Origin: Eledone cirrhosa
Lineage: Eukaryota
Assembly: GCA_964016885.1 (NCBI GenBank)
Contig: OZ024765.1
Location: 21,514,001 to 21,578,000, forward strand
Length of the DNA: 64,000 nucleotides
Direction: 5' to 3'
Shown here: one piece after another, positions 1 to 52,878 of the stretch
How the letters are laid out: each line of letters begins with the position of its first letter
How positions within the stretch are numbered: position 1 is the first letter of the stretch
The notes under the pieces: generated by a model
The model's database searches: none
What the model was told of the DNA's origin: nothing
Seen by the model: the letters and a program-made list of their open reading frames with translations, nothing else
Made by a program: the position numbers and the translations under genes

Positions 1-200
1 GAATCCCCAGTCACTGAAGAGGTCACAGAATGAGTGACGAAAGAACTTTGACAATATATGAACAATCGTCTGGTTGTGCAACCAACCAACCAACCAGAAA
101 TTTATAAATTCTCAAATTTATAAATTTAATTTATAATAAATTGAAGTAAAAGCAACTGGTGCGTGTGTTTTTTATTGGCAACATGACCCTCCCAAAGTAT

Positions 201-205
<5 letters not shown>
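1..205 (+). mobile_element. Short HHR-bearing element, family H1 (Penelope pLTR-like); cut by the window start
   Basis: HHR at 10-52, then a tail ending atgaccctcccaaagtataacaat into (TA)n. Homologous copies at 25677-25750 (-), 30878-31010 (+) and 49612-49817 (-). Confidence 0.75.
10..52 (+). ncRNA. Minimal type I hammerhead ribozyme
   Basis: gtca CTGAAGA g gtcac-agaatga-gtgac GAAA gaac T t tgac. Stem I gtca/tgac, stem II gtcac/gtgac. Confidence 0.75.
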
Positions 206-231
<26 letters not shown>

Positions 232-2123: not shown

Positions 2124-4395
2124 TTAGATAAGGCGGGTCTTCTCTATTACTGAGTACCGCCAAAGGTCTCGGTCCAGTGACATTGTCTTGGAGAGGTGTA
2201 AGTGTGTGAGGTCGGAATTTATCAGCTCGTCCCAGGTTTTTCTGGGTCTGCCTACTCCGTGGCTACCGTCTATCTTTATTGCCCTGCACTTTGTTATACA
2301 GCTGTCGTCTTTCATGCGCATCACGTGACCATACCAACGTAGCCTTCTCTCGAGTAAACAACATCTGATCCCTCTTATTTCTAATTTTTTCCTTAGTTCG
2401 TTTATGCTTTGCCGTTCACGTATATTACTATTACACATCCAACGGAGCATGCAAGCTTCGTTTCTCTCTAGTCTGCGTATATCCTCTGCACACAATGCCC
2501 AGGTCTCACTGCCATGTAACATTGCTGTTCGTATGCAGGCATCATACAACCTGCCTTTCATTTTTAGGGAGAACCCTTTAGCGGCTAATAGTCGTATAAG
2601 CTCTCTGAACTTTTTCCATCCAGTTCTGACTCTACTGTACTTTCAGAGCACCCTCCCCCCACTGCTGATTTTGTCACCCAGGTAACGGAAGCTGTCCACT
2701 ATTTCTATAGAACCCTCTGCGCAGTTGAAAGAGTTAGTATTTTGTGGGCACTTGCTGCTACTTATTGCACCAGAGCACCGGCCACATGTAAAATCTATGT
2801 TCTTAGTTAGCTTACCTGTGATCCCACTACATCTTTTATGCACCCATACTTTGCATTTGGGACACAAAATGGAGTTTCTACCTACGCCTTTCCTACACAC
2901 TGAGCATGACCACTTCCCGGAAGGGACCGCCGCCTTATTTTCTTTCTTACAAACTAGAACTTTAGTCTTAGCCAGGTTAATTTTAAGGCCTTTTGATTCT
3001 AGGCCGTGCTTCCATGTTTGGAATTTCTTCTCTAGCTCGGCCATTGATTCAGCTATGAGTGTTAGGTCATCTGCGTATAGGAGTTCCCATGGGCAGCCGG
3101 TCTTGAACTCCTCTGTTATAGCCTGAAGGGCAATAATAAATAGTAGGGGGCTGAGAACGGAGCCCTGATGGACGCCAACCTTTACGCTAAACTCTTCACT
3201 ATATTCGTTGTTAATTCTAACCTTGCTGACTGTTTCTTTATACATGGCTTGTATAGCTCTCACAAGCCATTCGTCAACACCTTGTTTTCTAAGATCCCAC
3301 CAGATAATGGAACGGGGGACTCTGTCGAAAGCTTTCTCCAAGTCGACAAAAGCTAAGTATAGGGGTTTACTTTTAGCTAGGTACTTCTCCTGTAGTTGTT
3401 GTACAATGAAAAGAGCGTCTGTGGTACTTTTGCCTGACACAAACCCGAACTGCATTTCATCTAGATCAATTCTCTCTCTGATTAGTTGCGCTATTACTTT
3501 TTCCGTGACCTTCATGACCTGGTCGATTAATTTAATGCCTCTATAGTTACTCCTATCTAGAGCATCTCCTTTACCCTTATAACAGTTAACGATGATGCTG
3601 TTACGCCAGTCCTTCGGAACAACCCCATTCTGTACGACTTGGTTAACCATGGTGTGTCCCACTGTACCAGATGCCTTCAGCATCTCAGCAACTATTTCCG
3701 AAGGCCCAGCCGCCTTACCCGTCTTCATATCTTTGATTGCCTTACTTATTATACTACCCTCGACTAACACTGCTGGTCCCTCTATTGGGTCGATGTGGGG
3801 GAGACTGTCTTTCTCCCATTTATTCTCCTCATTTAGTAGCCTTTCGTAGTGACACTTCCAAGCTACCTTCTTATCAGCGTCAGTGATGGCAAGTACGCCG
3901 TCATCATTAAGTACACACTTCTCCCCGACAATATCACGGTTTTCCTTGACACATTGCCTAGCAATCCTGAACACCTCACGTTTTTGGTCCTCGCGTTGTA
4001 GAACATGCTTGAACTTTCTTTCCTCTGCTTCCCTTCTTGCAAAGTACACTTGTCTCCTAGCTTCCCTCCTGGCCACTTGATAGTCTTCTCTACTTCCCCC
4101 ATCCCGCCTTACTTTCCAAGCCTGCTTTTTGGCCGTAATTGACCCCTCCACCTTACTGTTCCACCACCATGTTACCCTCCTCCTGCCACAGACTTCGTCT
4201 GCCGCCATCAGCAGGTTTGCTTTCAGGAATTCCCACTGTTCCTCTATATTGTATGACTCTAATTGCTCTTCCTTACTGTCGAAAGCATCAAGTAGTATGC
4301 TTTTAAATTTATTTCTGGCTGTGGGGTCCTTTAGCTTCCATATTTTGTATGCTTTTAAATTTATTTCTGGCTGTGGTGTCCTTTAACTTCCATAT
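2124..4395 (-). mobile_element. RTE-clade LINE, 5'-truncated and frameshifted (RT + C-terminal region)
   Basis: ORFs 2643-4208 and 2124-2561 carry NYRGIKL, QFGF, FVDLEKAFDRVP, GVHQGSVLSPLLF, LLYADD and RRLRWYGHVMR...GRPRKTW. A ~50-bp direct duplication sits at the truncated end (4295-4395). Confidence 0.92.
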
Positions 4396-5959: not shown

Positions 5960-5993
5960 CACCTGAGGAAGGGCTTATGCCCGAAACGTCGTT
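5960..5993 (+). ncRNA. Minimal HHR core, family H3 (stem I degenerate)
   Basis: CTGAGGA a gggc-ttat-gccc GAAA cgtcg T t, followed by an aataaa-containing tail running to (TA)n at ~6083. Confidence 0.6.
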
Positions 5994-6112: not shown

Positions 6113-6931
6113 AATGAAGTAATTCCATCGGAAAAGTCCAGGAAAAAAGAGTGCTCTATGTAGGTAACAGAGCTTAATAGTTATGTAATAAACAACATAA
6201 GGCAATTATTCCATTTACCAGTGGTTTCTTAAAAGCAAAAAATGTTGCTTTCAATCATCAGAATGAATAAAATCCTGGTCTATTTATTGAATTGGATTTT
6301 AAAAAACCAATTTTAAAATCCAATTCAATAAATAGACCAGGATTTTATTCATTCTGATGATTGAAAGCAACATTTTTTGCTTTTAAGAAACCACTGGTAA
6401 ATGAAATAATTTTAAAATCCAATTCAATAAATAGACCAGGATTTTATTCATTCTGATGATTGAAAGCAACATTTTTTGCTTTTAAGAAACCACTGGTAAA
6501 TGGAATAATTTAAAAATCCAATTCAATAAATAGACCAGGATTTTATTCATTCTGATGATTGAAAGCAACATTTTTTGCTTTTAAGAAACCACTGGTAAAT
6601 GGAATAATTTTAAAATCCAATTCAATAAAGAGACCAGGATTTTATTCATTCTGATGATTGAAAGCAACATTTTTTGCTTTTAAGAAACCACTGGTAAATG
6701 GAATAATTTTAAAATCCAATTCAATAAATAGACCAGGATTTTATTCATTCTGATGATTGAAAGCAACATTTTTTGCTTTTAAGAAACCACTGGTAAATGG
6801 AATAATTTTAAAATCCAATTCAATAAATAGACCAGGATTTTATTCATTCTGATGATTGAAAGCAACATTTTTTGCTTTTAAGAAACCACTGGTAAATGGA
6901 ATAAATGCCTTATGTTGTTTATTACATAACT
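6113..6931. mobile_element. Family H4 element: one inverted HHR copy (6178-6304) plus six tandem 99-nt HHR units (6311-6905)
   Basis: CTGATGA at 6354, 6453, 6552, 6651, 6750 and 6849. Each unit reads ttattcatt CTGATGA ttgaaagc...gcttttaa GAAA ccactgg T A aatggaataa. The inverted copy has tcatcag at 6255. Confidence 0.85.
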
Positions 6932-7129
6932 ATATATATGCATTGCTGGAAGATCTTTGATAATATATGACACTATAAAACTTCGTTAGGTCATAAAACT
7001 TTGACGAGACATCAACATTAAATATTTCAGATTTCTGATATTCAAGATATTAGGAGAGGGTGGTGAGGAGAGGGTGGTGGGGAGAGGGGGTTGGGGGGGA
7101 GGGGGCAGAAGGGGGATCCTTACTTTGTG

Positions 7130-7435: not shown

Positions 7436-7529
7436 TAATAAATTTATAGTAAAATATTGGTACCCTTGAAATACGTATAATATAATAAATATGGTTTTGT
7501 AAAGATATTTTCCATTCATTAATATTATT

Positions 7530-7715
7530 GGTGGATTGGCAGTATCGGTAGAAAGTCGGACACCATGCTTTGAAGCATAGAGTTACGTCCCTTTATGATC
7601 TGAGTTCAAATCCCGCCGAGGTTAACTTTGCCTTTCATCCTTACGGGGTCGATAAAATAAAGTACCAGTAATGCACTGGGTAATTGCTGGCCTTGTGCCA
7701 AATGTAGAAACAATT
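7530..7715 (+). mobile_element. SINE family A, full length
   Basis: A-box-like tggcagtatcgg, B-box gagttcaaatccc, 3' end gtagaaacaatt. Confidence 0.85.
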
Positions 7716-7853
7716 AATATTATTAATATATATATATATATACACACACACATATAGATATATACATACATACACACACACATATATATATATATATATA
7801 CACACATATATATGTATATATATAAAAACAAATATACATATGCACACACGTAC

Positions 7854-13648: not shown

Positions 13649-13682
13649 ACATATATATATATATATATATACTGTATATAGT

Positions 13683-13864
13683 AATTGTTTCTACTTTAGG
13701 CACAAGGCCATCAATTACCAGTGCATTACTGGTACTTTATTTTATCGACCCCGTAAGGATGAAAGGCAAAGTCAACCTCGGCGGGATTTGAACTCAGATG
13801 GTAAAGGGACGTAACTATGCTGGAAAGCATGGCGTCCGACCCTCTACCGATACTGCCAATCCAC
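13683..13864 (-). mobile_element. SINE family A
   Basis: Homologous to 7530-7715; short TSD tatatagtaat. Confidence 0.85.
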
Positions 13865-14190
13865 GTATATAGTAATAATAATAAATTTGAAGACTAAAAT
13901 CCAAAGAGGGCTCGATAAGGAAAATATATATCAAATATATAAGAACCGTAGAGCAAATATTTATTAAAATAACAGATTAAAGTTTAAGCAAAGAATCGCT
14001 GCTTTCACCCTTGACGGGATCTTCTGAAACTAACAAAGTCAATCTGTGAACGCAGAAGTGGATATTTAAAAAAAACGTTGCAACCGGAGGAAGACGATAC
14101 GTGGCAAAGAACGGGGGAAAACGAATAATACGCGGTGAAAAACAATTAAGGGTGAAAGCAGCGATTCTTTGCTTAAACTTTAATCTGTTA

Positions 14191-15177: not shown

Positions 15178-15465
<288 letters not shown>

Positions 15466-15879
15466 AATATATATATATATATATATACAATATGTTGAAA
15501 AGGTAACACACCAGAGAGAAATATACAGTGCGCTATCAATAAAACAGGGAAAAAAACCACCAGTGTATGGAATCTATAACCTATGAAAGGCAGAGTATAG
15601 ACACGATAATTAAAAATATAAATTAAAGCGTAAATAAATACCTCTATAACTATATAACACACGTACAAATCCAAAGAGATCTGTTTCGCCAGTAATTTGT
15701 TGACAGAAATGGAATAACCTCAGATCCTCATCGTGTGTAAGGCTATACATTTCAGACAACACTAAGAGAATTTTAAAAATCCATTGAGTGTGTTCTGTTA
15801 TTATTTCTGGCAATATTATTACAACAATATGACCCTCCCCAAGTATAACAATATATATATATATATATATTTATTTATA

Positions 15880-18530
15880 GCCTGTAGAAGGCTTAGTTAG
15901 CCTGAAGCAGCGCACAAGGCATGGTGAGGTAGTGTATCTACCCACGGATAAGTCTGGTAGGATGTCAATAGACAGCATGCCGAACTACATCAAGGCTATG
16001 CAACCCCACATCACCAACACGAGCGAAATTACACAACAAATACATGAGGGGAGAGAGAAGATCCTCAACGCTCACATGATGATGTGGACTGACATCCTAA
16101 AGCCAAGCAGACGCACTGCCAACAACTTCCAGGCGTCTAACAATGGCATACCACCCTTGTATGGGCTCCGCAAAGACCACAAGACAGTCGACGACCCGAC
16201 AACAGGACCACCAATAAGACCTGTATGCGGAGCCAATATAGCTAGTAACTACAGGATCTCCTACTTCCTCTCAATGGTTATACGCCCCATAATCAAGATG
16301 TCCCCAGATGTATGTGACAGTACAGAGGACCTCCTCAGCAGAATCAGTGAGTGCAACAAAAACAAGAACCTATCCAACTGCATAATAGGTAGTATGGATG
16401 TGGTATCACTGTACCCATCCATTAACATTGATTTTGCTGTGGAAAAATGTGTGGAGATGATCATTGAGAGTGAGGTGGAGTTCTGCGACGTCGACACAGA
16501 CCAACTGCGCCTCCTACTTAGACTTACCTACGACACTGACTACCTAGACAGCCATGATCTTAGCCGTTTCTTCCCCAGTAGACCCATAAGAGGTAGACCC
16601 CCCACCATAACCTCAATGGCAAAAAAGACTCCCATGGGAAGTGGATTGGGTGGACCAAAGCCATACGTACCCCTCAAAACAATGATCAGGTAAGAAAAAT
16701 GGTCGCGCATACAATAGGGGCTAGTATTAAAACTACCCTAAAGGGCCACATATTCAAATTCAACGAGAAGATCTACACCCAAAATGAGGGAGCAGCCATT
16801 GGCGTCAGCATAGCTGGTGACATTGCCAACCTTTTTATGATATGGTGGGAAAGGAAACTCAAAGATCTTGATGAGAGCTCCATAGACCTCACCGTGTACT
16901 CTCGTTACGTAGACGATATTAATATAGTAATAAGGACACCCCCACAAGAGAGTACTAACAAATATGATTTAGAATGTAGCACATCCAGAATGTAGCGCAT
17001 TTAGAATGTAGCATCCAGCAGATAGCTAACTCCATACACCAGAGTATAACTATAACTATTGACTACCCTTCCAAACACCCTAACAGTAGACTACCTGTAT
17101 TAGACACGGAACTCTGGATGAACACTATAGACGAGAGGGCCCAAATTCTCCACTCACACAATGCTAAACCCATGGACTCCAAATACCTGATACTCAAAAA
17201 CTCAGCAATGTCCAGTAGTGCTAAGTTTAATATTCTGATCGCAGACTTGGTACGAGTAATGAAGAATGTGTCCCGCATGTGCTACCCAACAGAAATGGAA
17301 AGACCCATCCAACACTTCATCAACCGCATGCAGTTCTCTGGCTACAACCAAAGAGACAGAGTCAGAGTATACGAAGGAGCCATGGAGAAGTATAAGACCC
17401 TCATAGAACTGGACATGAAAGGAATTTGCCCATTATACAGGAGCAAATCATGGAATAGCTTAGATAGGGTTAGACATAAGATAGGGAAAGCCACCTCATG
17501 GTACGACAACCAGAGATACCAGAGTGTCATGTTCGTGGAGGGAAATTAGCTAACCAGTGTAGAAAGGCCCTGAGAAAGACCCACTTAAAGATTAAAGTGG
17601 TAGAAAAGCCAGGAACTACCATAAAATCCCTGATCAGCAAAACATACCCTTTTAAGAAAACCCACTGTACTAATAGGAAATGTATTATATGTAAAGTAAA
17701 ACAGCGGATAAACTGTAAAACTAGAAACGAAGTATATAGCATAAGATGTACAGAGGGTACTTGCAGAAACATGACAACAACATCCATAGGCGAGACAGCT
17801 CGTAGCATAGGTGAAAGGATAGACCAACATTGCGGGGAATTAAAAGGACGAAAAAACGGTTCAGTACTATACGAATACGCCAGACAACAACACGACGGTA
17901 ACATAGACAACATAGAAATTAGAATAATATCTAAACATAGAAATGACCCAGCAGATAGGCAAATCAGAGAGGCCAGTGAAATAGAACTTAGAAAGCCAAA
18001 GCTAAACAGAAAAAAATGAATGGAATAACAACACCCAAACAAACAATACTCACCTTAGAGAAATATAAATAAATAAATATATACACAAGCACAATAAAAA
18101 CAAACACATATAAACACACAGTAGTAAACTAAGATAAAATACAATAACTAAAACACAGTCACCCAAACGCGAACACACACTAAACACTAGACACACACGC
18201 AAACGCACGCGCAGAGAAGAAGACAAAAAATAAATAAATAAATAAACATACAAAATAAAAATGGCGTAGATATACAATACAACAGGAGGAACATAATAGT
18301 ACCACTGATGATGTTGCAGATGTGCAACGAAAGAACTTTGTTAGACTATATATATGTGTTTGTGTCTATATTGTATCTGTACTTTTTACCGTTGGTCAGT
18401 CAATGGTAAACATTGAGGACCGAATGAATTAACTGATATAAAAGATACAGAAGCGGAAACCAACCAAACAGTGAGTGTGTTCTGTTATTAATTCTGGCAA
18501 TATTATTACAATATGAGCCTCCCCAAGTAT
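15880..18530 (+). mobile_element. Penelope-like retroelement (RT + GIY-YIG), decayed, with a 3' pLTR carrying an HHR
   Basis: PPLYGLRKDHK, PIRPVCG, SMDVVSLYPSI, IANLFM, YSRYVDD; GIY-YIG-like VYSIRC...IGETARSIGERIDQH...IREASEIELRKPKLN. Split by stops and frameshifts. The same tail also occurs upstream at 15785-15852. Confidence 0.9.
18297..18348 (+). ncRNA. HHR in the Penelope 3' pLTR
   Basis: CTGATGA t gttgca-gatg-tgcaac GAAA gaac T t tg. It shares gaaagaactttg with family H1. Confidence 0.75.
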
Positions 18531-18624
18531 ATATATATTTATATTCCTGCCCCATGGTATGGATGAAATATTGTCAGCAAATCAAAATTGTATGAGTATG
18601 TAGGCGTTCTTTGATTTCTTTTAC

Positions 18625-20710: not shown

Positions 20711-20829
20711 TAGATGTGTGTGTGTCATAATATATATATATGTGTGTGTGTGTATATATATATGTGTGTGTGTGTATGTAGCGTATATGTGATTGTACTC
20801 GCGTTATATATATACAATGATATATATAT

Positions 20830-20981
20830 AATTGTTTCTTTTTTGGCACAAGGCCAGCAAGTACCCCCAGTGTATTACTGGAGCTTTATTTTATCGACCC
20901 CGTAAGAATGAAAGGCAAAGTTAACCTCGGCGGGATTTGAACTCAGACCGTAAAGGGACGTAACTCTATGCTGGAAAGCAT
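20830..20981 (-). mobile_element. SINE family A, 5'-truncated
   Basis: Homologous to 7530-7715. Confidence 0.8.
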
Positions 20982-21285: not shown

Positions 21286-21503
21286 ATGTCAGTAATATTC
21301 TTTACATCAATAAAATCACTTTGAATCTGATTTAGAATTTTATAAATATATAAAGATATCGATATATAGAGATATATAGAGATACATTAAACAAAGCGTA
21401 AACAGACCAAAGGAAAGATCCTATTAAAGTACTCTAAAATAAAGAAACTTCACAAACATCTCACCCTAGGGTAGATTCCTTGTTAAGGGACCTAAAGCTA
21501 ATA

Positions 21504-21930
21504 AATAATTGTTTCTACTTTTGGCACAAGGCCAGCAATTACGCCAGTGTATTACTGGTACTTTATTTTATCGACCCCGTAATAATTGTTTCTACTTTGG
21601 GCACAAGGCCAGCAATTACGCCAGTGTATTACTGGTACTTTATTTTATCGACCCCGTAATAATTGTTTCTACTTTTGGCACAAGGCCAGCAATTACGCCA
21701 GTGTATTACTGGTACTTTATTTTATCGACCCCGTAATAATTGTTTCTACTTTGGGCACAAGGCCAGCAATTGCCCCAGTGTATTACTGGTACTTTATTTT
21801 ATCGACCCCCGTAAGGATGAAAGGCAAAGTTAACCTCGGCGGGATTTGAACTCAGAACGTAAAGGGCCATAACTCTATGCTACAAAGCATGGCGTCAGAT
21901 GCTCCACCGATACTGCCAATCCACCGCCAT
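21504..21930 (-). mobile_element. SINE family A with its 3' 77 bp present in 4 tandem copies
   Basis: Units start at 21504, 21581, 21658 and 21735. Confidence 0.9.
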
Positions 21931-21999
21931 TAATAATACTAATAATAATAATATTTTCTTTATTAACCACAAGGGTTGACACAAAGCATAACATTGAGG

Positions 22000-23088: not shown

Positions 23089-23429
23089 ATGGGCAGTTCT
23101 GCGTGTAAACATAAAACAAAAGCAAAGGATGTAAAACATCGAAACGAAGGACCAAATACCCAATAAGGGGGGGGGGACCACCGAGAGTTACTCGTAGAGA
23201 AAGCCCACAAAATGATAAGGTGTCAAAATGTAATTATGTTTCTCCACGTGTGACGCGTGTTTCGTGGTCGATCTGCTCAAGGTAAATCAGTGCCAATCGT
23301 GTCCGACTCTGGAATCAATAACAGCTTATCATACTCGCGGTTTCTTTAATGGCGGCATAACATATCTATGTACAGCTTTGAGTTACCATTTCTCATACAG
23401 TTGCTATATATGTATATATATATATATGA

Positions 23430-24003
23430 TAATAAGGGCGCTGCGGAGTTGCAAATGGGTTACATATGAAAAAAGTTTGTCCTTCATCAGTGATCTTCCA
23501 ACCATCATAGGCATTTCATCGCTTTAAAGACCATATACCTCCGGTTGGTGCGAGCAACGGCTAAAAAAAAGTCGTTGGGACACGTAAATAAAGGGGACGT
23601 GAGTGTAAACAAACAAAATGGTGAAGCAACAGAAAGTGAAGAAGAAGGAGACAAGTCCCAAATTTCTATGAATTTAAATTCGGTGAAATCGTGAACGAGA
23701 GAATAAAGACCATCAAACCTGGTTGAAATGTGAGCAAGGAAGGAATTTCGCACAGGTCTAACGGGAGGAAGAAGGGGTCTGGTCTGCGAATTCGGTAAAC
23801 ATAAGTTCTGTGAAATCGTAGACGAGAGAGAGAAAGAAAAAATTCGTTGCTTCACCATTTTGTTTGTTTACACTCACGTCCCCTTTATTTACGTGTCCCA
23901 ACGACTTTTTTTAGCCGTTGCTCGCACCAACCGGAGGTATATGGTCTTTAAAGCGATGAAATGCCTATGATGGTTGGAAGATCACTGATGAAGGACAAAC
24001 TTG

Positions 24004-24012
<9 letters not shown>
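23430..24012. mobile_element. Fold-back short element (arms 23464-23630 / 23846-24012); relatives at 34790-34940 and 49878-50020
   Basis: ~165-bp near-perfect inverted arms between (TA)n tracts; contains CTGATGA. Confidence 0.7.
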
Positions 24013-24066
<54 letters not shown>

Positions 24067-25193: not shown

Positions 25194-25558
25194 ATTGTTT
25201 CGACTTTTGGCACAAGGCCAGCAAATACCCAGTACATTACTGGTACTTTATTTTATCGACCCCGTAAGGATGAAAGGCAAAGTTAACCTCGGCGGGATTT
25301 GAACTCAGATCATAAAGGGCCGTAACTCTATGCGTCAAAGCATGGCGTTCGACCCACTACCGATACTGCCAATCTACCAATCCATCAATCCCTAATAATA
25401 ATAATTGTTTCTACTTTAGGCACAAGGCCAGCAATTAACCAGTACATTACTGGTACTTTATTTAATCGACCCCGTAAGGATGAAAGGCAAAGTAAAGGGA
25501 CGTAACTATGCTAGAAAGCATGGCGTCCAACCCTCTACCGACACTGTCAATTCACCGT
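25194..25558 (-). mobile_element. Two tandem family A SINEs inside one 20-bp TSD
   Basis: TSD acaaatcgtccttgtaatat at 25176-25195 and 25563-25582. Confidence 0.85.
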
Positions 25559-25637
25559 CTATACAAATCGTCCTTGTAATATGTTATTAAATATATTATG
25601 ATGCAACACTGAATCCTTGTTCCTTATCCCTATAGTG

Positions 25638-25682
<45 letters not shown>

Positions 25683-25864
25683 ATACTTTGGGAGGGTCAT
25701 GTTGCCAATAAGAAACACACGCACCAGTTGCTTTCACTTCAGTTTATTATATATATTATATATATTATATATATATATATTATATATATTATATATATAT
25801 AAATATATATTTATATAAATATAAAAACGAAATATATATATATATATATATAAATATAAAAACG

Positions 25865-26570: not shown

Positions 26571-26629
<59 letters not shown>

Positions 26630-26635
<6 letters not shown>

Positions 26636-26755
26636 TGTAATAAACAACATAAGATAATTATTTCTTTTACCAATGGTGTCTTGAAAGCAACCAAAATTGC
26701 TTTCATTCATCAGAATGAAAAAATCCTGGTGTCTTTATTGACTGTGGATTTGAAA
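26630..26755 (-). mobile_element. Degenerate family H4 copy (GAAA mutated to GACA)
   Basis: Reverse-complement match to 15350-15465. Confidence 0.7.
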
Positions 26756-28396: not shown

Positions 28397-28606
28397 AAAG
28401 GTAAACAGAAATAACAACACAATCGGTACAGTATATGGAAGGGATATATTAGGTTAATGCTTGAAATAGCAGAAGAGGGTCTTAACGTTTCGGACGCTAA
28501 TCCTTCATCAGAAGAAAGAATGAGAAATAAAATAGATTGAGGGAACGGGCGGGATGGAATTGAAAAAAATGTCTTTAGATAAAAAATAACAGGTCCATTC
28601 ATGTTG

Positions 28607-30813: not shown

Positions 30814-30825
30814 TAAGAGCTATAT

Positions 30826-30873
30826 TCTTGTTTTGTCGACCTGGAGAAGGCATATGACCGCGTTCTTCGAGAC
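30826..30873 (+). pseudogene. Tiny RTE RT fragment
   Basis: Encodes CFVDLEKAYDRV. Confidence 0.55.
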
Positions 30874-31058
30874 ATGAGACAAAGAGCTTTGACAATATAT
30901 AAACAAGCTTCCGGTTATGGAACTAACCAACCGGAAATTTATAACAAATTGAAGTGAAAACTAACAGGTGCGTTTGTTTTTATTGGCAGAATGACCCTCC
31001 CATAGTATTATATATATATATATATTGTATTGGCCGATAGTACTTCTTGTGGTTTTGA

Positions 31059-31100
31059 TTGCCCTGATGAGTCCTTAATAGGACGAAACATTGTTGGCTA
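31059..31100 (+). ncRNA. Minimal type I HHR, family H7
   Basis: gcc CTGATGA gtcct-taat-aggac GAAA cattg T t ggc, then an aataaa tail. A tail-only copy is at 28903-28980. Confidence 0.82.
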
Positions 31101-31492: not shown

Positions 31493-31494
<2 letters not shown>

Positions 31495-32595
31495 AAGAGG
31501 AAAAATATAGCACTGACTTTAGAAAGTACATTGAAAAATCTTGGAAGAGATACCTTGACGACTGTTTCATCATCTGGACAGAATCTCTAGATACTCTGGA
31601 TGAGTTCAATATTCTCCTGAATAACCTACACCCATCTCTCCAATTCACAAAAGAGATGAGTAGTACCAAATTACCATTCCTAGATATAATGGTAATCAAA
31701 AACGACACCACCATTACCACGGATATATATTATAAACACACAGACACCCATCAATATCTGAATTTTAAGTCGTTCCATCCACCTCATACAAAACACAACA
31801 TCCCATACTGCCTAGCCAGAAGAATCTGTACCATTGTAGAAGATACGAATACCAGGTACAAACGCCTAACAGAACTAAGAGAATTTTTGCTCAAACAAAA
31901 ATGCCTATCTCTACTTATAGAAAATGGCATACAGTGGGCTATAAAAATACCTATACAACAACTTAGGACAACCCAAGGAAGAAGAAACCAAGAACTGGTC
32001 ATACCATTTATAATGACACACAACCCATGTCACCAAAATATCTTCAACACTGCCAAAGCAAACCTACCGATCATTGCTCAAAGTAATGAATTAAAAGCCT
32101 TAATCACAGACCGATCTTTGACTCTTAATAAAAGACAGCCGAAAAATATGAAGCAATTACTAACAAAAGCAAAGTTTGACCTTAACAACATAGACCAATC
32201 ATTCACTGTATCTAAATGCAATGATAGTCGATGCGACATATGTCAATCCATACACACTAGTCAATATATGAACACAAAAACTGGAAAAAATATTCCCAAA
32301 TGCAAATATGAACTGCAAAAGCAGAAATCTAATTTACTGCATTAAATGCCCGAATTGTGAAGAACTATATGTCAGTCAAACTAGAAATGCACTATCGGAA
32401 GGTGCACGGGTGCACCGACAGCAAATCAGAGACCCAAATGTCCGTCAGATACCCCTAAGTAACCATCTAGCAACATGTGGTCAGAGAATATTTATAATAT
32501 TCCCATTCTACAAATTACACAGCCCAAGTGAAATCAAGAGAAAAATCAAAGAAAAGAATTTTATTGATAAATTCCAACCCAAGCTAAATGAATAA
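31493..32595 (+). mobile_element. Second Penelope-like element, 5'-truncated (RT 3' half, Cys linker, GIY-YIG)
   Basis: WKRYLDDCF, LPFLDI, YYKHTDTHQYL, CNDSRCDIC, NLIYCIKCPNC...YVSQT...KEKNFIDKFQPKLN. Frameshift near 32300. Confidence 0.9.
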
Positions 32596-32596
32596 T

Positions 32597-32777
32597 TGTT
32601 TCTACTTTAGGCACAAGGCCAGCAATTACCCAGTACATTACTGGTACTTTATTTTATCGACCCCGTAAGGATGAAAGGCAAAGTTAACCTCGGCGGGATT
32701 TGAACTCAGACTGTAAAGGGACGTAACTATACTAGAAAGCATGGCGTCCGACCCTCTACCGATACTGCCAATCCACC
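32597..32777 (-). mobile_element. SINE family A with 14-bp TSD at the PLE stop codon
   Basis: gctaaatgaataat at 32583-32596 and 32778-32791. Confidence 0.87.
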
Positions 32778-33004
32778 GCTAAATGAATAATAATGGGGTA
32801 TTACTCCTACTATGACTATGACTATGACTATGACTACGACCACTAAAAACAACAACAACAATAATAATAATAAAAGTGATGTTGATGGTGATGATTACTA
32901 GGAAATGCTATTTTCATCATTTCTAAAAATAGCAAAACAATTGATGCTTTGGATAGGGTCAATTAGTAGTCGTTAGACTTACCACACTGGCAACTAACGA
33001 CCAC

Positions 33005-34713
33005 TGATTCTACCACCCCGCTAAAGTGGCGACTACTCTACAACTAATACTGCTAAAACTATCATTGACGCGGTTCAAAATCAGACTGGGAGTATTTACT
33101 TTCTCGATGCTCCTGGGGGTACCGGAAACACTTTTGTAACGAAATTGATTCTCGCTAAGATTCGTTAGGAGAAAAAAATTGCGTTGGCCGTTGCATCGTC
33201 CGGGATCGCTGCTACTTTGCTCCCGGGAGACAGGACAGCACATTCAACCTTTAAACTCCCCTTGGATTTAGTAAAAACTGTGACACCAACATGCAATATC
33301 AACAAGAGCTCACACGAAGCTCTGGTTCTCAAAAAGTGTTGCCTCATTGTTTGGGATGAGTGCATAATGGTACACAAGGGTGCCCTTGAGGCATTGGACG
33401 GGACCCTGAAAGACATTAGGGATTCTACGGCTCCTATGGGTGGCGTAACCCTTCTGCTATCAGGGGATTTTCGGCAAACGCTGCCTGTCATCCCCAAAGG
33501 GACAAGAGCTGATGAAGTGCGTGCCTGCCTTAAGTCGTCCATGTTGTGGCCCCAGGTGAAGAGTTTGTACCTGAGCACAAATATGCGTGCTCATTTGCAT
33601 GGTGACAACATGTCTGCAGCATTTGCTCAGAACATTTTAGCACTTGGTGAGTGCAATGTCCCTGCGGATGATAAGGGCAGCATAGCAATCAACTCCCTGT
33701 GCAACATTGTGAGCAGCCCTTCTGACCTTTGGGAAGCAGTTTTTCCTAATGTCTCATCTAACCTTAAAAACCTCGATTAGCTCAGCGAAAGAGCCATCCT
33801 TGCTCCGAAAAATGCCATGGTTAATTTTATTAACGAGCAGCTGATTGAGAAGATTCCCGGTAAAGAGAACATCTTCAAATCTATCGACCGGGCGTCAGAC
33901 CCCGACGATATCATTAATTATCCGGTTGAGTTATTAAATTCCCTTGAGCCCCCAGGGCTCCCACCTCACATTCTTAAGCTTAGGGTTGGCTGTCCCATTA
34001 TGCTAATAAGGAACTTGCATCCACCAAAGCAGTGCAACGGTACTCGCATGGTCGTCAAGTCACTGACGCCCCACTTGATTGAGGCCACCAATGTAACGGG
34101 TGCGGGAGAAGGGAGAATGTTTTCATTCCAAGGATGAACCTTTTCCCCTCGGCGTCAGATATCCCGTTCGATTTCCGGCGATCCCAATTCCCGGTGAGAC
34201 CATGTTTTGCCATGTACGTTAACAAGTCACAAGGGCAAACATTGTCGGTGGCGGGCATCCATTTGGGGGAGCCATGCTTCTCTCATGGCCAACTTTGTGT
34301 TGCCTGTTCCCGCGTAGGGATCAGGAATGGACTTTTTGCTTACACTCCTCAAGGGATGACACGCAATATCGTCTACAAAGAGGTGCTATAGATGTTGGTG
34401 CAGGTGTTGGAGGTGTTGGAGCTATGCCGTCTGGAAAACTATTTCCTGGTAGGGTCACCCATAGCGGACAGATCTGACACCCAGCGGCATCAGGGCCACC
34501 ATCTTGCAATTTTGGTCTGCTAAATTCGCTATTGGAAGATTATTAACCCATCATTGATTGTCCAAAATGCTAATTGGTTCGTAACTTTTAATAACCGGTT
34601 CAAATGCTTTATGCACTTAATTGATAAACTTATTCGCTTTCAGGCCACGTTTACCTGTATGTAACTTTTCATAGCAAATGAACAAACCCGAGCAACGCCG
34701 GGCTAAACTGCTA

Positions 34714-34714: not shown

Positions 34715-34791
<77 letters not shown>

Positions 34792-34933
34792 ATAAACGTG
34801 CTGCGGAGTTGCAAATGGGTTACATATGAATAAAGTGGTCCTTCATCAGTGATCTTCCAACCATCATCGGTATTTCTTCGCTTTGAAGAAATACCGATGA
34901 TGGTTGGAAGATCACTGATGAAGGACCACTTTA

Positions 34934-34978
<45 letters not shown>

Positions 34979-37191: not shown

Positions 37192-39897
37192 CAGCAGTAC
37201 AGCTGATGTGCTAGTGGCGAGAACGGCACGAGACCAGTTCTTCAATGTAAAACACAAAGGTTGTATTGTCAGAAATAGAACACGTGCTCTAAGAAACGAG
37301 GGAGCCAAAGCTGTTAGCTGGGCCCAAGTGGCAGAGGCGAAAAGTGGCAACAAATCCACAATTCGGTCTTTGCAAGACAAAGATGGACGCATTATACTTG
37401 AATCCAAGCAGATGTGCACGGCCTTCCAGCAGCATTTTGCACAACTGTTCGGGCAAAGCGGTACATCGAGCGAGGTGATGGACTTCAGCTCCTACCTCGA
37501 CGGCGTTCCGTAACTCTCGAGCACGGATGCAGAGAGCTGCGAAAGGCCGATCACAGCGGGCGAAATAGAAGATGCCCTAGGCCGCTGCGGGAAATGCAAA
37601 TCACCCGGTTTAGATGGTCTGCCCTATGAGTTTTACATAGGCATGCCAGACTTGTTCTCTAGTGTCCTTGAAGCGGTCTACTGCAACTGGCAGCAGAACG
37701 AGAGGATTCCCAGTTCTGTAGGCAGAGACGTAGTAACGCTGATCAGGAAAGATGAGAACAAGGGGGATGAGATAAGCAATTTCAGGCCCATAACTCTGCT
37801 CAACACAGAGTTAAAGATTTTAGCCAAGGTGTTAGCAGCAAGGCTGGCACTTGTCGTCGAGAACCTGGTAGGGGAAGCCCAAATGTGTGCAATCCCGACC
37901 AGGTTCATACACGACAACCTCCACCTCATTCGATACATCATAGAGAGGGTAGGGTGTAAACCTGGCTTTGGTGGGGCTCTGATCAATTTAGATCAGTCTA
38001 AGGCATTTGATAGGGTCGACCATCAATACTTGGAAGCGGTTCTCAAGGTGGCCGGCTTCGGTCCCGTCTTCAGAGGCTGTATCGCTGCCATGCACACCAG
38101 CATCTGCTCGGCAGTCTAGGTGAATGGCTACCTATCAGAGCCATTCCAAATCATGCGTTCCATCCGTCAGGGATGCCCTCTCTCCTCCATTCTGTATGTA
38201 CTGACTCTCGAGCGGAAATTGGAGCTGTTGCAGGGCATCCCGATCGAACCAGGACTGCGGAAAGCAGCGTCAGCCTATGCCGACGACACAACAGTAATGG
38301 TGTCGAAAACCTCGGACATCAGGGTAAACGGCAACCTATTACAGGAATACGAAACGGTGACAGGAGCAAAACTAAACCCAAACAAGTCTGTCGGTTTGCA
38401 ACTCGGCACATGAAGAGGCAAACCCATGCCTTCCGACAGTGTCGTTGGACGCTGGACGGAAGGACCGGTGAAATTGCTTGGGGTCGGGTTCGGTCCAGAC
38501 CTCCAGGTGGACAAGAACTGGAACGAGGTCACGGCGAAGGTATTTGCACTTACCCAGAAGTGGGCTGAGTGCAAACTCTCCTTGAAAGGTCGAGCAGAGG
38601 TGGCGAACACTTACATAGCTTCCGTCATCTACTACCGCTTGACAGTCGTGCCTTGCCCCCGCGAATACCTTACCAAAATGGAACGCCTACTCTTCAAGTT
38701 CCTCTGGAAGAAACAGGCTCCATTGGTGAGGAGATCCATCTGCTGTCAACACCCTTCTAACGGAGGGCATGCCGTGGCTGATGATGCGCAAACATGCACT
38801 GAGGCTACGCTATCTCCAGGTATTCCTGACCGGTGAACCGGTGTGGCTGTCGTTTGTGAGACAAGCTCTTCCACAACTCATCTCACTAACAGAGCTGCAG
38901 TCCTGGGTCAAGCGAAGACCAAAAATGAGTGCCTGGCACCTCAAGTGCCTACAGGCGCTCACAGCCCTCTACCAAGCGGAAACGGCAATCAGCGGAGACT
39001 CTACTTCGACATTCTATAGGGGATTAGTGGAGGATAAGTGCGACGACGTTCTCGGGGAAACTCTAGGATTCGAGGAGGACGAACTGACCAGTCTGTTCGG
39101 GAGGACTTTCCATCCAGGACCAATGGATAACTTCCAGAAGTCTCTGGCCTGGCAGTGCTACCGAGGAGCTCTACCAGTTCAAGACAAAATCTACAGGCTC
39201 GGACGCCCTGGCAGAGATCCTGCCAAAAGGACCTGTCCAAGATACGAGCAGGACATCGAAACCGTTCTGCACACAATTGTTCAGTGCCCAGGGTTGACCG
39301 ACCTGTGGAATTATGTCGAACAGCTGGTGTCACATGTGGGACGCATCCAGTTGTCAGCCGAGTCCATCATGAGGATCACCCAGCCACCTTCATTTAAGAA
39401 CGAAGGAGAGGTGGTTTTCCTCTGTCTGGTGGCTATGGCGAAAGAGGTAATATGGTGGACGAGGTTAAAAGGACTGAGGGCAAACACCTTTCTCTCCAGA
39501 CAACAACTTATCCCCTTCTTTAAGTACCACTCCAGAAGGAAGGTGAGAGTGGAGAGAGAGGTGCTACACCCCAGTAAATTCACTGAAAGGTGGATGAATG
39601 TGGCAAAAATGGCCCGAGTGAATGGGCCTTCTCTGTATATAAACCTGTAGGTTGAGGAAGATAAACAGAGGGAAGACTGGAACACCTACAAAACGTGTTC
39701 CTGGTGTTGAGGGTTGTTCTATCCACGGGGTGTAAAACAACCCCGCAGTAACGTCCCCCCACCTATTGGGGATTTCAATTGTTATTTTATTATATATAGT
39801 TTATTGTTATTTATTAATGTTAAAGTTATTTTTATGTAAAACCCCCGCTGTCTTGTAATGTCCCATTTTTGTACGCCCCTGTGGCAAATAGAGAAAG
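37192..39897 (+). mobile_element. Tx1/L1-group LINE ORF2, 5'-truncated and decayed
   Basis: KSPGLDGLPYE, NFRPITLLNTELKILAK, DQSKAFDRVDH, IRQGCPLS, AYADD and a C-terminal CPRY...H...C knuckle. (TATC)-rich flanks on both sides. Confidence 0.9.
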
Positions 39898-49490: not shown

Positions 49491-49556
<66 letters not shown>

Positions 49557-49611
49557 CGTTTCGGAATTTGTTTAGCAAGATTCTTTATCTGAAAACGTGT
49601 GTTGAAACCGA

Positions 49612-49817
49612 TATTGTTATACTTTGGGAGGGTCATGTTGCCAATAAGAAACACACGCACCAGTTGCTTTCACTTCAATTTATTATAATAAATTTATAAA
49701 TTAAAGGAATTTATAAATTTCCGGTTGGTTGGTTGGTTCCACAACCAGATGGTTGTTTATATATTGTCAAAGTTCTTTCGTCACACATTCTGTGACCTCT
49801 TCAGTGACTGGGGATTC
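49612..49817 (-). ncRNA. Family H1 element with HHR at 49766-49808
   Basis: Reverse complement of 1-205; stem II gtcacag-aa-tgtgtgac. Confidence 0.78.
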
Positions 49818-50016
49818 TTTTCTTTGTTTTTGTGCCTCTCCTTTGTTCTGTCCTACGCCATCTTGTTTCTGTGTGTGTCACTCGTGTCCCCTTTATTTAC
49901 GTGTCCCAACGACTTTTTTTTAGCCGTTGCTCGCACCAACCGGAGGTATATGGTCTTTAAAGCGATGAAATACCAATGATGGTTGGAAGATCACTGATGA
50001 AGGACTAACTTTATTC

Positions 50017-50064
<48 letters not shown>

Positions 50065-51885: not shown

Positions 51886-52029
51886 CATACATATATATAC
51901 ATATACATATATACACATATATATATGGGGATATATGATATATCAACATATCTGTGGCTCCATGTCGAGAGTAAACATATTAGTTCTGGCTAATTTGATT
52001 TATTATTATTATTATTATTGGTGAATAAG

Positions 52030-52872
52030 GGAGGTGGATTGGCAGTATCGGTAGAGGGTCGGACGCCATGCTTTGACGCATAGAGTTACGGCCCTTTACA
52101 GTCTGAGTTCAAATTGATTGGCAGTATAGGTAGAGGGTCGGACGCCATGCTTTGACGCATAGAGTTACGGCCCTTTACAGTCTGAGTTCAAATTGATTGG
52201 CAGTATCGGTAGAGGGTCGGACGCCATGCTTTGACGCATAGAGTTACGGCCCTTTACAGTCTGAGTTCAAATTGATTGGCAGTATAGGTAGAGGGTCGGA
52301 CGCCATGCTTTGACGCATAGAGTTACGGCCCTTTACAGTCTGAGTTCAAATTGATTGGCAGTATCGGTAGAGGGTCGGACGCCATGCTTTGACGCATAGA
52401 GTTACGGCCCTTTACAGTCTGAGTTCAAATTGATTGGCAGTATAGGTAGAGGGTCGGACGCCATGCTTTGACGCATAGAGTTACGGCCCTTTACAGTCTG
52501 AGTTCAAATTGATTGGCAGTATAGGTAAAGGGTCGGACGCCATGCTTTGACGCATAGAGTTACGGCCCTTTACAGTCTGAGTTCAAATTGATTGGCAGTA
52601 TCGGTAGAGGGTCGGACGCCATGCTTTGACGCATAGAGTTACGGCCCTTGCCATTCTGAGTTCAAATCCCGCCGAGGTTAACTTTGCCTTTCATCCTTAC
52701 GGGGTCGATAAAATAAAGTACCAGTAATGCACTGGGGTAATTGCTGGCCTTGTGCCTAAAGTAGAAACAATTATTCTTTGCCTTTCATCCTTACGGGGTC
52801 GATAAAATAAAGTACCAGTAATACACTGGAGTAAATTGCTGGCCTTGTGCCTAAAGTAGAAACAATTATTAT
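52030..52872 (+). mobile_element. SINE A with 8 tandem 79-bp tRNA-like heads and a duplicated 3' part
   Basis: ggcagta starts at 52041, 52120, 52199, 52278, 52357, 52436, 52515 and 52594. Confidence 0.92.
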
Positions 52873-52878
52873 TATTAT

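Follow-up and report, generated by a model that had tools for sequence, protein, structure and literature searches.

Short hammerhead repeats in a stretch of Eledone cirrhosa DNA as probable truncated ends of a Penelope-like element family related to a degraded coding copy

A stretch of 64,000 nucleotides of Eledone cirrhosa (assembly GCA_964016885.1, contig OZ024765.1, positions 21,514,001 to 21,578,000 of the forward strand), referred to below as the window, consists of microsatellite-dense, AT-rich animal DNA. It holds a Penelope-like element (PLE) with pieces of a reverse transcriptase (RT) and of a GIY-YIG endonuclease in C-terminal position at 15881-18019, as an earlier note on this DNA had recognised, and four copies of a short repeat, H1. 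Judged from sequence comparison, H1 consists most probably (about 75%) of 5'-truncated end-fragments from a coding sister family within this PLE lineage, that is, solo pseudo-long terminal repeats (pLTRs), one of them with a tail that continues into the open reading frame (ORF).

The PLE end (18290-18528) was aligned to each H1 copy and the scores were compared with those of 1000 dinucleotide shuffles. None of the shuffles reached the score obtained for the copies at 1-203 (z 7.5), 49616-49817 (z 9.5) and 25680-25754 (z 7.0); the copy at 30878-31008 scored at chance level (79/1000). Scored by block, the hammerhead gave z 10.8, the 3' tail z 3.8 (4/1000) and the pLTR remnant upstream of the coding body z 7.3, with the middle block at chance (z −0.6, 839/1000). 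A profile made from H1 only found the PLE as one colinear match (18302-18531, E 1.9e-6) and also the upstream remnant (15786-15849, E 0.0025). By the shuffle tests and this profile match, the similarity goes beyond low-complexity sequence for three of the four copies, which sustains the link between H1 and the PLE end suggested by the earlier note. Common to both are the minimal hammerhead and the last ~25-60 nt; in a global alignment of the longest H1 with the PLE end, 169 of 325 columns are identical. Ahead of their cores the PLE and H1 share a 9-mer that is found nowhere else in the window, but the similarity in this upstream part is marginal (9-mer in 91/2000 shuffles; the upstream extension in 126-197/1000, not significant alone). 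The terminal motif was found at only six places in the window, and 19-21 of 23 terminal nt are common to the PLE and H1 (16-18 for the old copy at 30878). Another supposed landmark, AACCAACC, is not positionally homologous, as that of the PLE aligns to AAGCAAC of H1 and not to H1's own AACCAACC.

Three H1 copies are mutually 94-98% identical (93.7% between the copy at 1-206 and that at 49.6 kb), the fourth being older. The H1 profile found no additional copy in the window (next match E 0.77), and all four are single, not tandem. Their 5' ends lie at a stop after 78 nt, inside hammerhead domain II (the 30878 copy), at the junction with an arm of another repeat, H2 (49867), and at the window edge. 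The hammerhead is shared by the PLE and two of the four copies (1-206 and 49613-49866), which keep the CTGANGA core; the copy at 30878, directly behind a short RT-like fragment (30820-30876, forward strand), has lost GAAA, and the copy at 25677 retains only its last ~78 nt, so the landmarks do not stand in the same order in all four copies as had been supposed. PLE ends lie within (TA)n, and (TA)-rich sequence is found at or near every H1 and PLE 3' end; at the 49612 copy, however, a 58-nt extension precedes the (TA)n tract, and not all four copies end directly in it. The longest copy has a purine/AC-rich leader and an AT-rich palindromic middle. This middle (98-136, 49677-49720) is an imperfect palindrome absent from the PLE pLTR.

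The PLE hammerhead has a stem II of 6 bp, a stem III of 2 bp and one mismatch in stem I, and is predicted to be cut after 18338. CUGANGA, GAAA-N-UH, stems I and II, an unpaired base before stem II and G10.1-C11.1 were found in the PLE and in two of the four H1 copies. A permissive scan of the window returned 17 hammerhead-like matches, these three included; Rfam at its gathering score returned no match in the window. Stem III, cleavage context and the two initial pairs of stem II are the same in the PLE and H1, and loop II is nearly so; three of 13 pairs are changed on both sides (24/500 shuffles as high), a count made on three sequences of which two are from one family. These compensatory changes point to a divergence of two families during which selection acted on each. 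Outside the core, H1 matches the PLE in 11-12 of 18 positions of domain II and in 9 of 14 after GAAA, compared with 7-10 of 17-27 and 0-5 of 14 for five other hammerheads of the window. The H1 and PLE hammerheads are predicted to need a dimer or the help of a protein. In architecture they correspond to the minimal PLE hammerheads of metazoans, which are reported to be mostly single, with several families per genome, and probably parts of truncated PLEs (Cervera and de la Pena 2014, PMC4209133).

All six PLE and H1 termini read M-[TS]-L-P-K-Y from a terminal ATG, with a stop at codon 5 in the 30878 copy. The remnant at 15829 differs from three H1 copies in one of 24 nt, and this difference is synonymous. 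The termini end at codon 6 (two), codon 8 (three) or codon 28 (the 49612 copy); TAT or AAT stands last at each of these three end points, which thereby merge with the (TA)n target. In the 49612 copy the 58-nt tail is in frame and yields a peptide of 28 residues before (TA)n. Compared with the first 34 residues of six close full-length relatives of the PLE (a seventh, P0022, was omitted as a near copy), the peptide encoded by the ATG region and tail scored 21.7, the highest among 1004 window peptides of 28 codons that begin with ATG and contain no stop (next 15.0; 0/3000 shuffles); for the tail alone, 2/3000 shuffles were as high. There was no signal against nine distant relatives (2450/3000 shuffles) or 30 proteins of the Neptune type of PLE (249/600 shuffles). 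These comparisons support the view that the H1 terminus with its optional tail represents the opening 28 codons of an ORF from this PLE lineage. The pLTR of Pen2a_Av from Adineta vaga likewise holds the first 12 amino acids of the ORF, or 22 with its tail (PMC3846280), and in Poseidon AT-rich DNA is nicked and the RT then starts within the 5' part of the ORF, at two sites which mark the limits of the tail (Frangieh 2024, PMC11167929). The terminus is likely conserved between the two families because it is both a protein N-terminus and an RT start region.

Several observations weigh against H1 being the ends of a coding family. An unanchored search with a profile of the close relatives placed the tail peptide at rank 7 (profile positions 1-26) with a non-significant E of 3.7, and with a profile of all 16 full-length relatives the peptide was outside the top 12. 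The six relatives of the anchored test, which are also those at least 45% identical, had been inspected before it was made. A stop-free tail occurred in 2071 of 10000 shuffles, and at this chance rate of 21% its openness alone says little; its length is 58 nt against the 30-40 nt described. The narrow base of the covariation count belongs here too, as do the folding energies of the hammerheads, which were not beyond those of shuffles (z −0.5 to −1.8). No H1 copy in the window runs into a GIY-YIG ORF: the longest joins an inverted H2 arm upstream, one is cut by the edge and two are short. A non-autonomous family, moreover, would also keep the start of the ORF, because the protein-binding region lies there.

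A possible mechanism follows published work (Arkhipova 2013; Frangieh 2024). In it, a parent that is active would be transcribed as pLTR-ORF-pLTR followed by the start of the next ORF, its RT-endonuclease would nick a (TA)n tract and cDNA synthesis would start internally, a few codons into the ORF. Three start points would have been used here, after codons 6, 8 and 28, each merging with (TA)n; priming by microhomology is our own suggestion. Early termination would give solo pLTRs of 78-250 nt, and longer synthesis a body of 2.6 kb. A sister family does exist in Octopus, represented by the O. vulgaris protein P0005 (51-74% identical over the four pieces of the window PLE); 31 recently active PLE families have been reported from O. 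vulgaris (PMC13282606), and Penelope is abundant in coleoids (PMC8967140). The pLTR/H1 arrangement itself is already known for PLEs, and the derivation of short hammerhead repeats from pLTRs has been stated for Xenopus (10.64898/2026.07.22.740005) and also proposed in PMC7229834. The relation of H1 to a PLE is to be expected in PLE-rich genomes and matters mainly for annotation: short hammerhead repeats resembling short interspersed nuclear elements (SINEs) or unknown repeats would be PLE ends, the terminus of which reveals the lost N-terminus of the parent and the RT start sites. The end points at codons 6, 8 and 28 would carry the internal-initiation model, hitherto demonstrated in one Poseidon element, over to a distant lineage, and they predict start sites.

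The earlier note had proposed that H1 was either the solo pLTR or a non-autonomous derivative of a related PLE. The solo pLTR is supported, and nothing in the window requires the second form, which we regard as unlikely. As a dispersed retrozyme- or SINE-like family, H1 would retain pLTR and initial codons as signals in cis, with a PLE of the lineage mobilising it in trans, and it could possibly be a fixed H2-H1 composite of ~466 nt. This would suit the presence of four copies in 64 kb, three of them nearly identical and none attached to an ORF, the 3' end shared with a coding element, and the unit 49555-50020, which is bounded by (TA)n on both sides and has no (TA) at the H2/H1 junction. The PLE machinery works in trans (PMC3846280) and PLE-derived non-autonomous elements have been proposed in print (10.64898/2026.07.22.740005; PMC7229834). 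However, the three visible 5' ends all differ (in a sample of four copies, one cut by the window edge), two of the four copies are without hammerhead, H1 is not tandem, and H2 also occurs alone as fold-backs (23461-24014 and 34821-34943), while heavy 5' truncation is the rule for PLEs. Non-LTR retrozymes (PMC7229834; 10.64898/2026.07.22.740005) resemble H1 in being short non-coding repeats with a type I hammerhead, related to PLE pLTRs, but H1 is dispersed, single and 5'-ragged with a minimal hammerhead. A tandem array at 6309-6904 fits that class better than H1 and is a different family.

Very improbable is the possibility that the family of the window PLE is itself the coding partner, with H1 made from its pLTR and mobilised by its protein. 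The nearly identical last 23 nt, the same (TA)n target, stem III and cleavage context would agree with this, but the fraction of identical columns (169/325) and the unalignable middle contrast with the 94-98% identity within H1, the compensatory changes indicate that the two evolved apart for a long time, and an intact member of the PLE family was not observed. The role of coding partner assigned to this copy by the earlier note must be given up, since the copy is 5'-truncated with three frameshifts (near 16630, at 16970-17010 and at 17537-17543) and has in addition lost the second tyrosine of GIY-YIG by substitution; on its sequence, it is dead. Chance, or convergence on the universal hammerhead core and AT-rich low-complexity sequence, is hardly credible as the source of the likeness: the middle block and the 30878 copy taken alone score at chance, the upstream similarity is marginal and AACCAACC is not homologous, but two blocks lie in the same order at similar spacing in one significant profile match, the other window hammerheads are unlike outside the core, the terminal motif is confined to six places and the tail peptide matches the lineage and not the Neptune-type controls, and it is thus already largely refuted by the shuffles, the H1 profile, the outside-core comparison and the tail-peptide test.

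The four pieces of the PLE ORF (Table 1) tile residues 159-800 of P0005, the best named relative (73% identical), with identities of 74, 62, 67 and 51%. A tandem repeat of 16 nt (16971-17013) is the site of the middle frameshift. From position 159 onward the PLE is matched by a profile built on 42 relatives, and positions 1-158 have no coding match anywhere in the 64-kb window. In full-length relatives 330-378 residues precede the DK motif, hence ~320 codons are missing at the 5' side. A spliced upstream exon was considered, TTTATTTATAG before 15881 resembling an acceptor, but 5' truncation is preferred because positions 1-158 are unmatched in the window and P0005 is continuous there.

Upstream of this body, 15782-15847 copies the PLE 3' terminus (18469-18531) with 90.9% identity over 66 columns (E 5e-21). 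Its terminus is identical to H1 in 21 of 23 nt and ends at codon 8, exactly as H1 does. The copy of the tail that had been noticed before the ORF is thus real; its comparison with a partial tandem PLE does not extend to a canonical contiguous one, because a (TA) tract of ~18 nt and the ~320 missing codons lie between remnant and body. The likely origin of the arrangement is a pair of insertions within a single (TA)n tract, or else a template jump there. The remnant closes its own 365-nt unit bounded by (TA). Between a (TA)n tract and the remnant lies a unique stretch of 295 nt (15488-15781) with no second copy in the window, and its position beside the remnant parallels that of the H2 arm beside H1.

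Table 1. Features of the window PLE, its upstream remnant and the H1 copies (positions in the window)
Feature	Position	Strand	Remarks
H1 copy, cut at window edge	1-206	+	hammerhead core 14-42; ATG 183; codon 8, then (TA)n
pLTR 3'-end remnant of window PLE family	15782-15852	+	ATG at 15829 + 7 codons, MTLPKYNN
(TA)n tract between pLTR remnant and truncated ORF body	15852-15869	.	~18 nt
PLE ORF, 5'-truncated, four frame pieces	15881-18019	+	RT pieces + C-terminal GIY-YIG piece
PLE piece 1: RT N-terminal half	15881-~16630	+	
PLE piece 2: RT motifs B'-C	~16630-16995	+	
PLE piece 3: thumb	~17010-17540	+	
PLE piece 4: Zn-linker + GIY-YIG	~17537-18019	+	
PLE 3' untranslated region / pLTR	18020-18530	+	after stop codon; aligns to H1; then (TA)-rich sequence
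Minimal type I hammerhead of PLE	18300-18343	+	core 18305-18311, GAAA 18329-18332
PLE terminal ATG + 5 codons (MSLPKY), start of ORF inside pLTR	18513-18530	+	
H1 copy, last ~78 nt only	25677-25754	-	ATG 25700; (TA)-rich both sides
H1 copy, older	30878-31008	+	81-86% to others; internal deletion; codon 6 end, then (TA)n
Optional tail of 49.6-kb H1 copy	49553-49612	-	ATG frame continues to codon 28, then (TA)n
H1 copy, longest	49613-49866	-	hammerhead core 49804-49776; ATG 49636
H2 arm, head-to-head with H1 5' side	49867-50020	+	92-94% to 23464-23618 and 23858-24011; no (TA) at junction

Members of the PLE lineage are nearly invisible to Pfam. One of the four pieces gave a single weak RVT_1 match and none a GIY-YIG match, and among seven relatives one weak RVT_1 match was found. 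The piece at 17537-18019 aligns with the C-termini of intact relatives, and YxG(E/Q)T is present in 33 of 47 relatives. A model of the intact relative P0007 (predicted local distance difference test, pLDDT, 88) has telomerases as all 14 of its best structural neighbours (best Z 15.7, root mean square deviation (rmsd) 3.6, 365 residues aligned), as is expected for a PLE. A sequence search of solved structures gave no match for P0007 and two bacterial defence RTs for the lineage profile. With the endonuclease piece alone as query none of 14 candidates passed, and no further Octopus subfamily was recovered. In P0030 of O. vulgaris, a protein that bears the name dynein regulatory complex subunit 6-like, the first ~150 residues are RT of this lineage and represent either an exonised fragment or an artefact of the gene model.

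The RT insert of the lineage is the only part of these results that could surprise a specialist. Motifs A and B' are 127-133 amino acids (aa) apart in the 42 of 47 relatives that have the two, compared with 60-63 aa in 109 of 120 Neptune-type controls (the listed relatives of the window's second PLE); in 150 profile representatives, the 67 with both motifs have a spacing of 120-156. By a count made by eye in Fig S1 of the 2021 paper by Craig et al. (PMC8557442), the spacing is ~60-63 in Penelope, Poseidon, Nematis and Neptune, ~87 in Naiad, 118 in human telomerase reverse transcriptase (TERT) and 152 in Tetrahymena TERT. The insert comprises ~70 residues, confidently modelled as helices and coil. 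A model of motifs A to C (pLDDT 85.9) matched 6zdp (Z 5.5, rmsd 3.2) and 6uso, of which the matched range of 107 residues is free of the insert (Z 5.1, rmsd 3.2); the insert residues add nothing to the telomerase match, since 107 residues were aligned to both. No Foldseek match of the insert to the telomerase insertion in fingers domain (IFD) was obtained at E 0.001 or better, the best Z being 5.5, and this shows neither a different nor a new fold. In an atlas search the insert matched unnamed clusters only (0.88-0.91). A tree made after removal of the insert separated 29 long-spacing from 14 Neptune-type rows (100/100, branch 7.5); it is a subsample that holds only these two groups and assigns no clade. 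The lineage is large, with 2082 protein clusters matching its profile at E 1e-30 or better.

On sequence characters the lineage fits none of the five clade definitions compared. It differs from the Neptune clade in linker, DKG motif, LPKIHK motif and A-B' spacing: the linker gap is 6-9 aa in 22 of 47 relatives, where the pattern matched, against 23-30 aa in 113 of the 120 Neptune-type controls, and TDKS (33/47) and LRKDHK (44/47) stand against ADKG (91) and LPK[IV]HK (110). The endonuclease is CCHH in 29 of 33 cases; upstream, RWx occurs in 21 of 25 proteins (RWK in seven) and GxKF/Y in one of 25. With Nematis it has in common the reduced CX2-5CxxC linker, in which 6-9 aa lead up to the following Cys, the CCHH motif and, by eye, the wording of thumb, linker and endonuclease (Figs S1, S2 and S7 as text, PMC8557442), but its A-B' spacing is about twice the ~63 aa counted by eye in the C. 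remanei row, and it has LRKDHK and not LYKTHK, TDKS and not SDK[RG], and almost no GxKF/Y. It partly resembles the Hydra clade, which includes Hydra-1_Obim of Octopus bimaculoides, in the upstream RW(K), the lack of GxKF/Y, DKS (near DKT), KDHK, YPSI, a canonical hammerhead and the (TA)n target, but carries CCHH, a CX4CxxC instead of a CxCX5C linker, a canonical motif B', the long insert and ORFs of up to ~1100-1200 aa. Naiad also has an insertion between RT motifs A and B' and a (TA)n target; the window PLE, in contrast, has a C-terminal endonuclease and a hammerhead, and the insert is ~70 aa against ~20 in Naiad. Telomerase RT shares an A-B' insertion and is nearest to the P0007 model.

Canonical PLEs with a C-terminal endonuclease (Pen2a_Av, PMC3846280; Poseidon_Ac of Anolis, PMC11167929; Schistosoma Cercyon, PMC4209133) likewise carry RT and then GIY-YIG in one ORF, a pLTR with a minimal type I hammerhead (stem II long and preceded by an unpaired base, stem III tiny) that ends in the first codons of the ORF, an optional tail, many solo truncated ends and AT-rich targets. 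Unlike these, the window hammerhead lies ~170-210 nt upstream of the ATG, whereas the Poseidon_Ac ORF starts inside the hammerhead; the remnant is split from the body by (TA)n and the A-B' spacing is about twice as long.

The IFD has been described as restricted to PLEs with an N-terminal endonuclease and scattered Coprina (PMC8557442), and in the literature searched, which left most subscription journals, Repbase and Dfam outside, no C-terminal-endonuclease lineage with such an insert was described. It is possible that the lineage represents a subclade of Nematis in which the insert is derived, that Repbase or Dfam already lists it as a generic Penelope, or that it has no name. Tentatively, and at somewhat less than even odds, the window PLE and the H1 parent belong to a large undescribed lineage with C-terminal endonuclease, hammerhead and (TA)n target, carrying a conserved and folded insert at the insertion-in-fingers position, of a length as in telomerases, and may combine a Nematis-like endonuclease with Hydra-like N-terminal motifs. 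If so, the insert would break the published rule on the IFD and offer a further deep branch for asking how telomerase gained this domain, which in telomerase is tied to repeat-addition processivity. PLE classification and the history of the IFD would need revision if the lineage is unnamed.

A second PLE fragment, of Neptune type and unrelated, lies at 31493-32595 (forward strand), from motif C to the endonuclease with one frameshift. It starts after (TA)n, and a SINE-like repeat replaces its 3' untranslated region at the stop codon. H1 as its pLTR was rejected, given this replaced 3' end and the absence of a match of the tail peptide in Neptune N-termini. The fragment has 191 relatives, with 42-59% identity among the 120 listed. 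Six of the Neptune-type proteins (P0066, P0067, P0086, P0093, P0108 and P0149) are labelled as from bacterial gill symbionts of bivalves, all on contigs of less than 5 kb, and likely represent DNA of the host in assemblies of the symbionts.

H2 (23428-24014, 34788-34943, 49867-50020) forms inverted arms ending at (TA)n, with 170 nt at 98% identity and a 59-nt fold-back, and, at two loci, an extension of ~35 nt on one side only. It has a CTGATGA half core that lacks GAAA, and its sequence has the appearance of a 3' end with tail from a further PLE family. In the retrozyme-like array (6177-6940), 6.0 units of 99 nt follow one another in tandem, every unit having a type I hammerhead core with a stem II of 10 bp; an inverted copy lies ahead of the units, which end at (TA)-rich sequence, and single copies occur at 15344-15476 and 26623-26755. 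Exact-motif searches of the available Craig 2021 supplement for H1, H2 or the 99-nt array as ends of the published Naiad, Chlamys or Hydra consensi gave no relevant match, although line breaks can hide matches there. Further hammerhead-like motifs of other families (31064-31088, forward; 28488-28511, reverse; 5963-5986, forward) lie in short elements adjoining (TA)n and are likely more PLE ends.

Of the remaining repeats, an abundant one of ~200 nt, which we take to be SINE-like, has internal tandem expansions of 77 and 79 nt and occurs at 414-575, 7517-7716, 13663-13884, 20828-20981, 21495-21945, 25194-25563, 32591-32795 and 52008-52877. An RT ORF of the long interspersed nuclear element type with a C-terminal PHD finger is located at 2643-4382 (reverse strand) and a second RT and zf-RVT remnant at 37514-39650 (forward strand). 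PIF1 helicase pieces, presumably Helitron-like, are found at 33169-34137 (forward strand).

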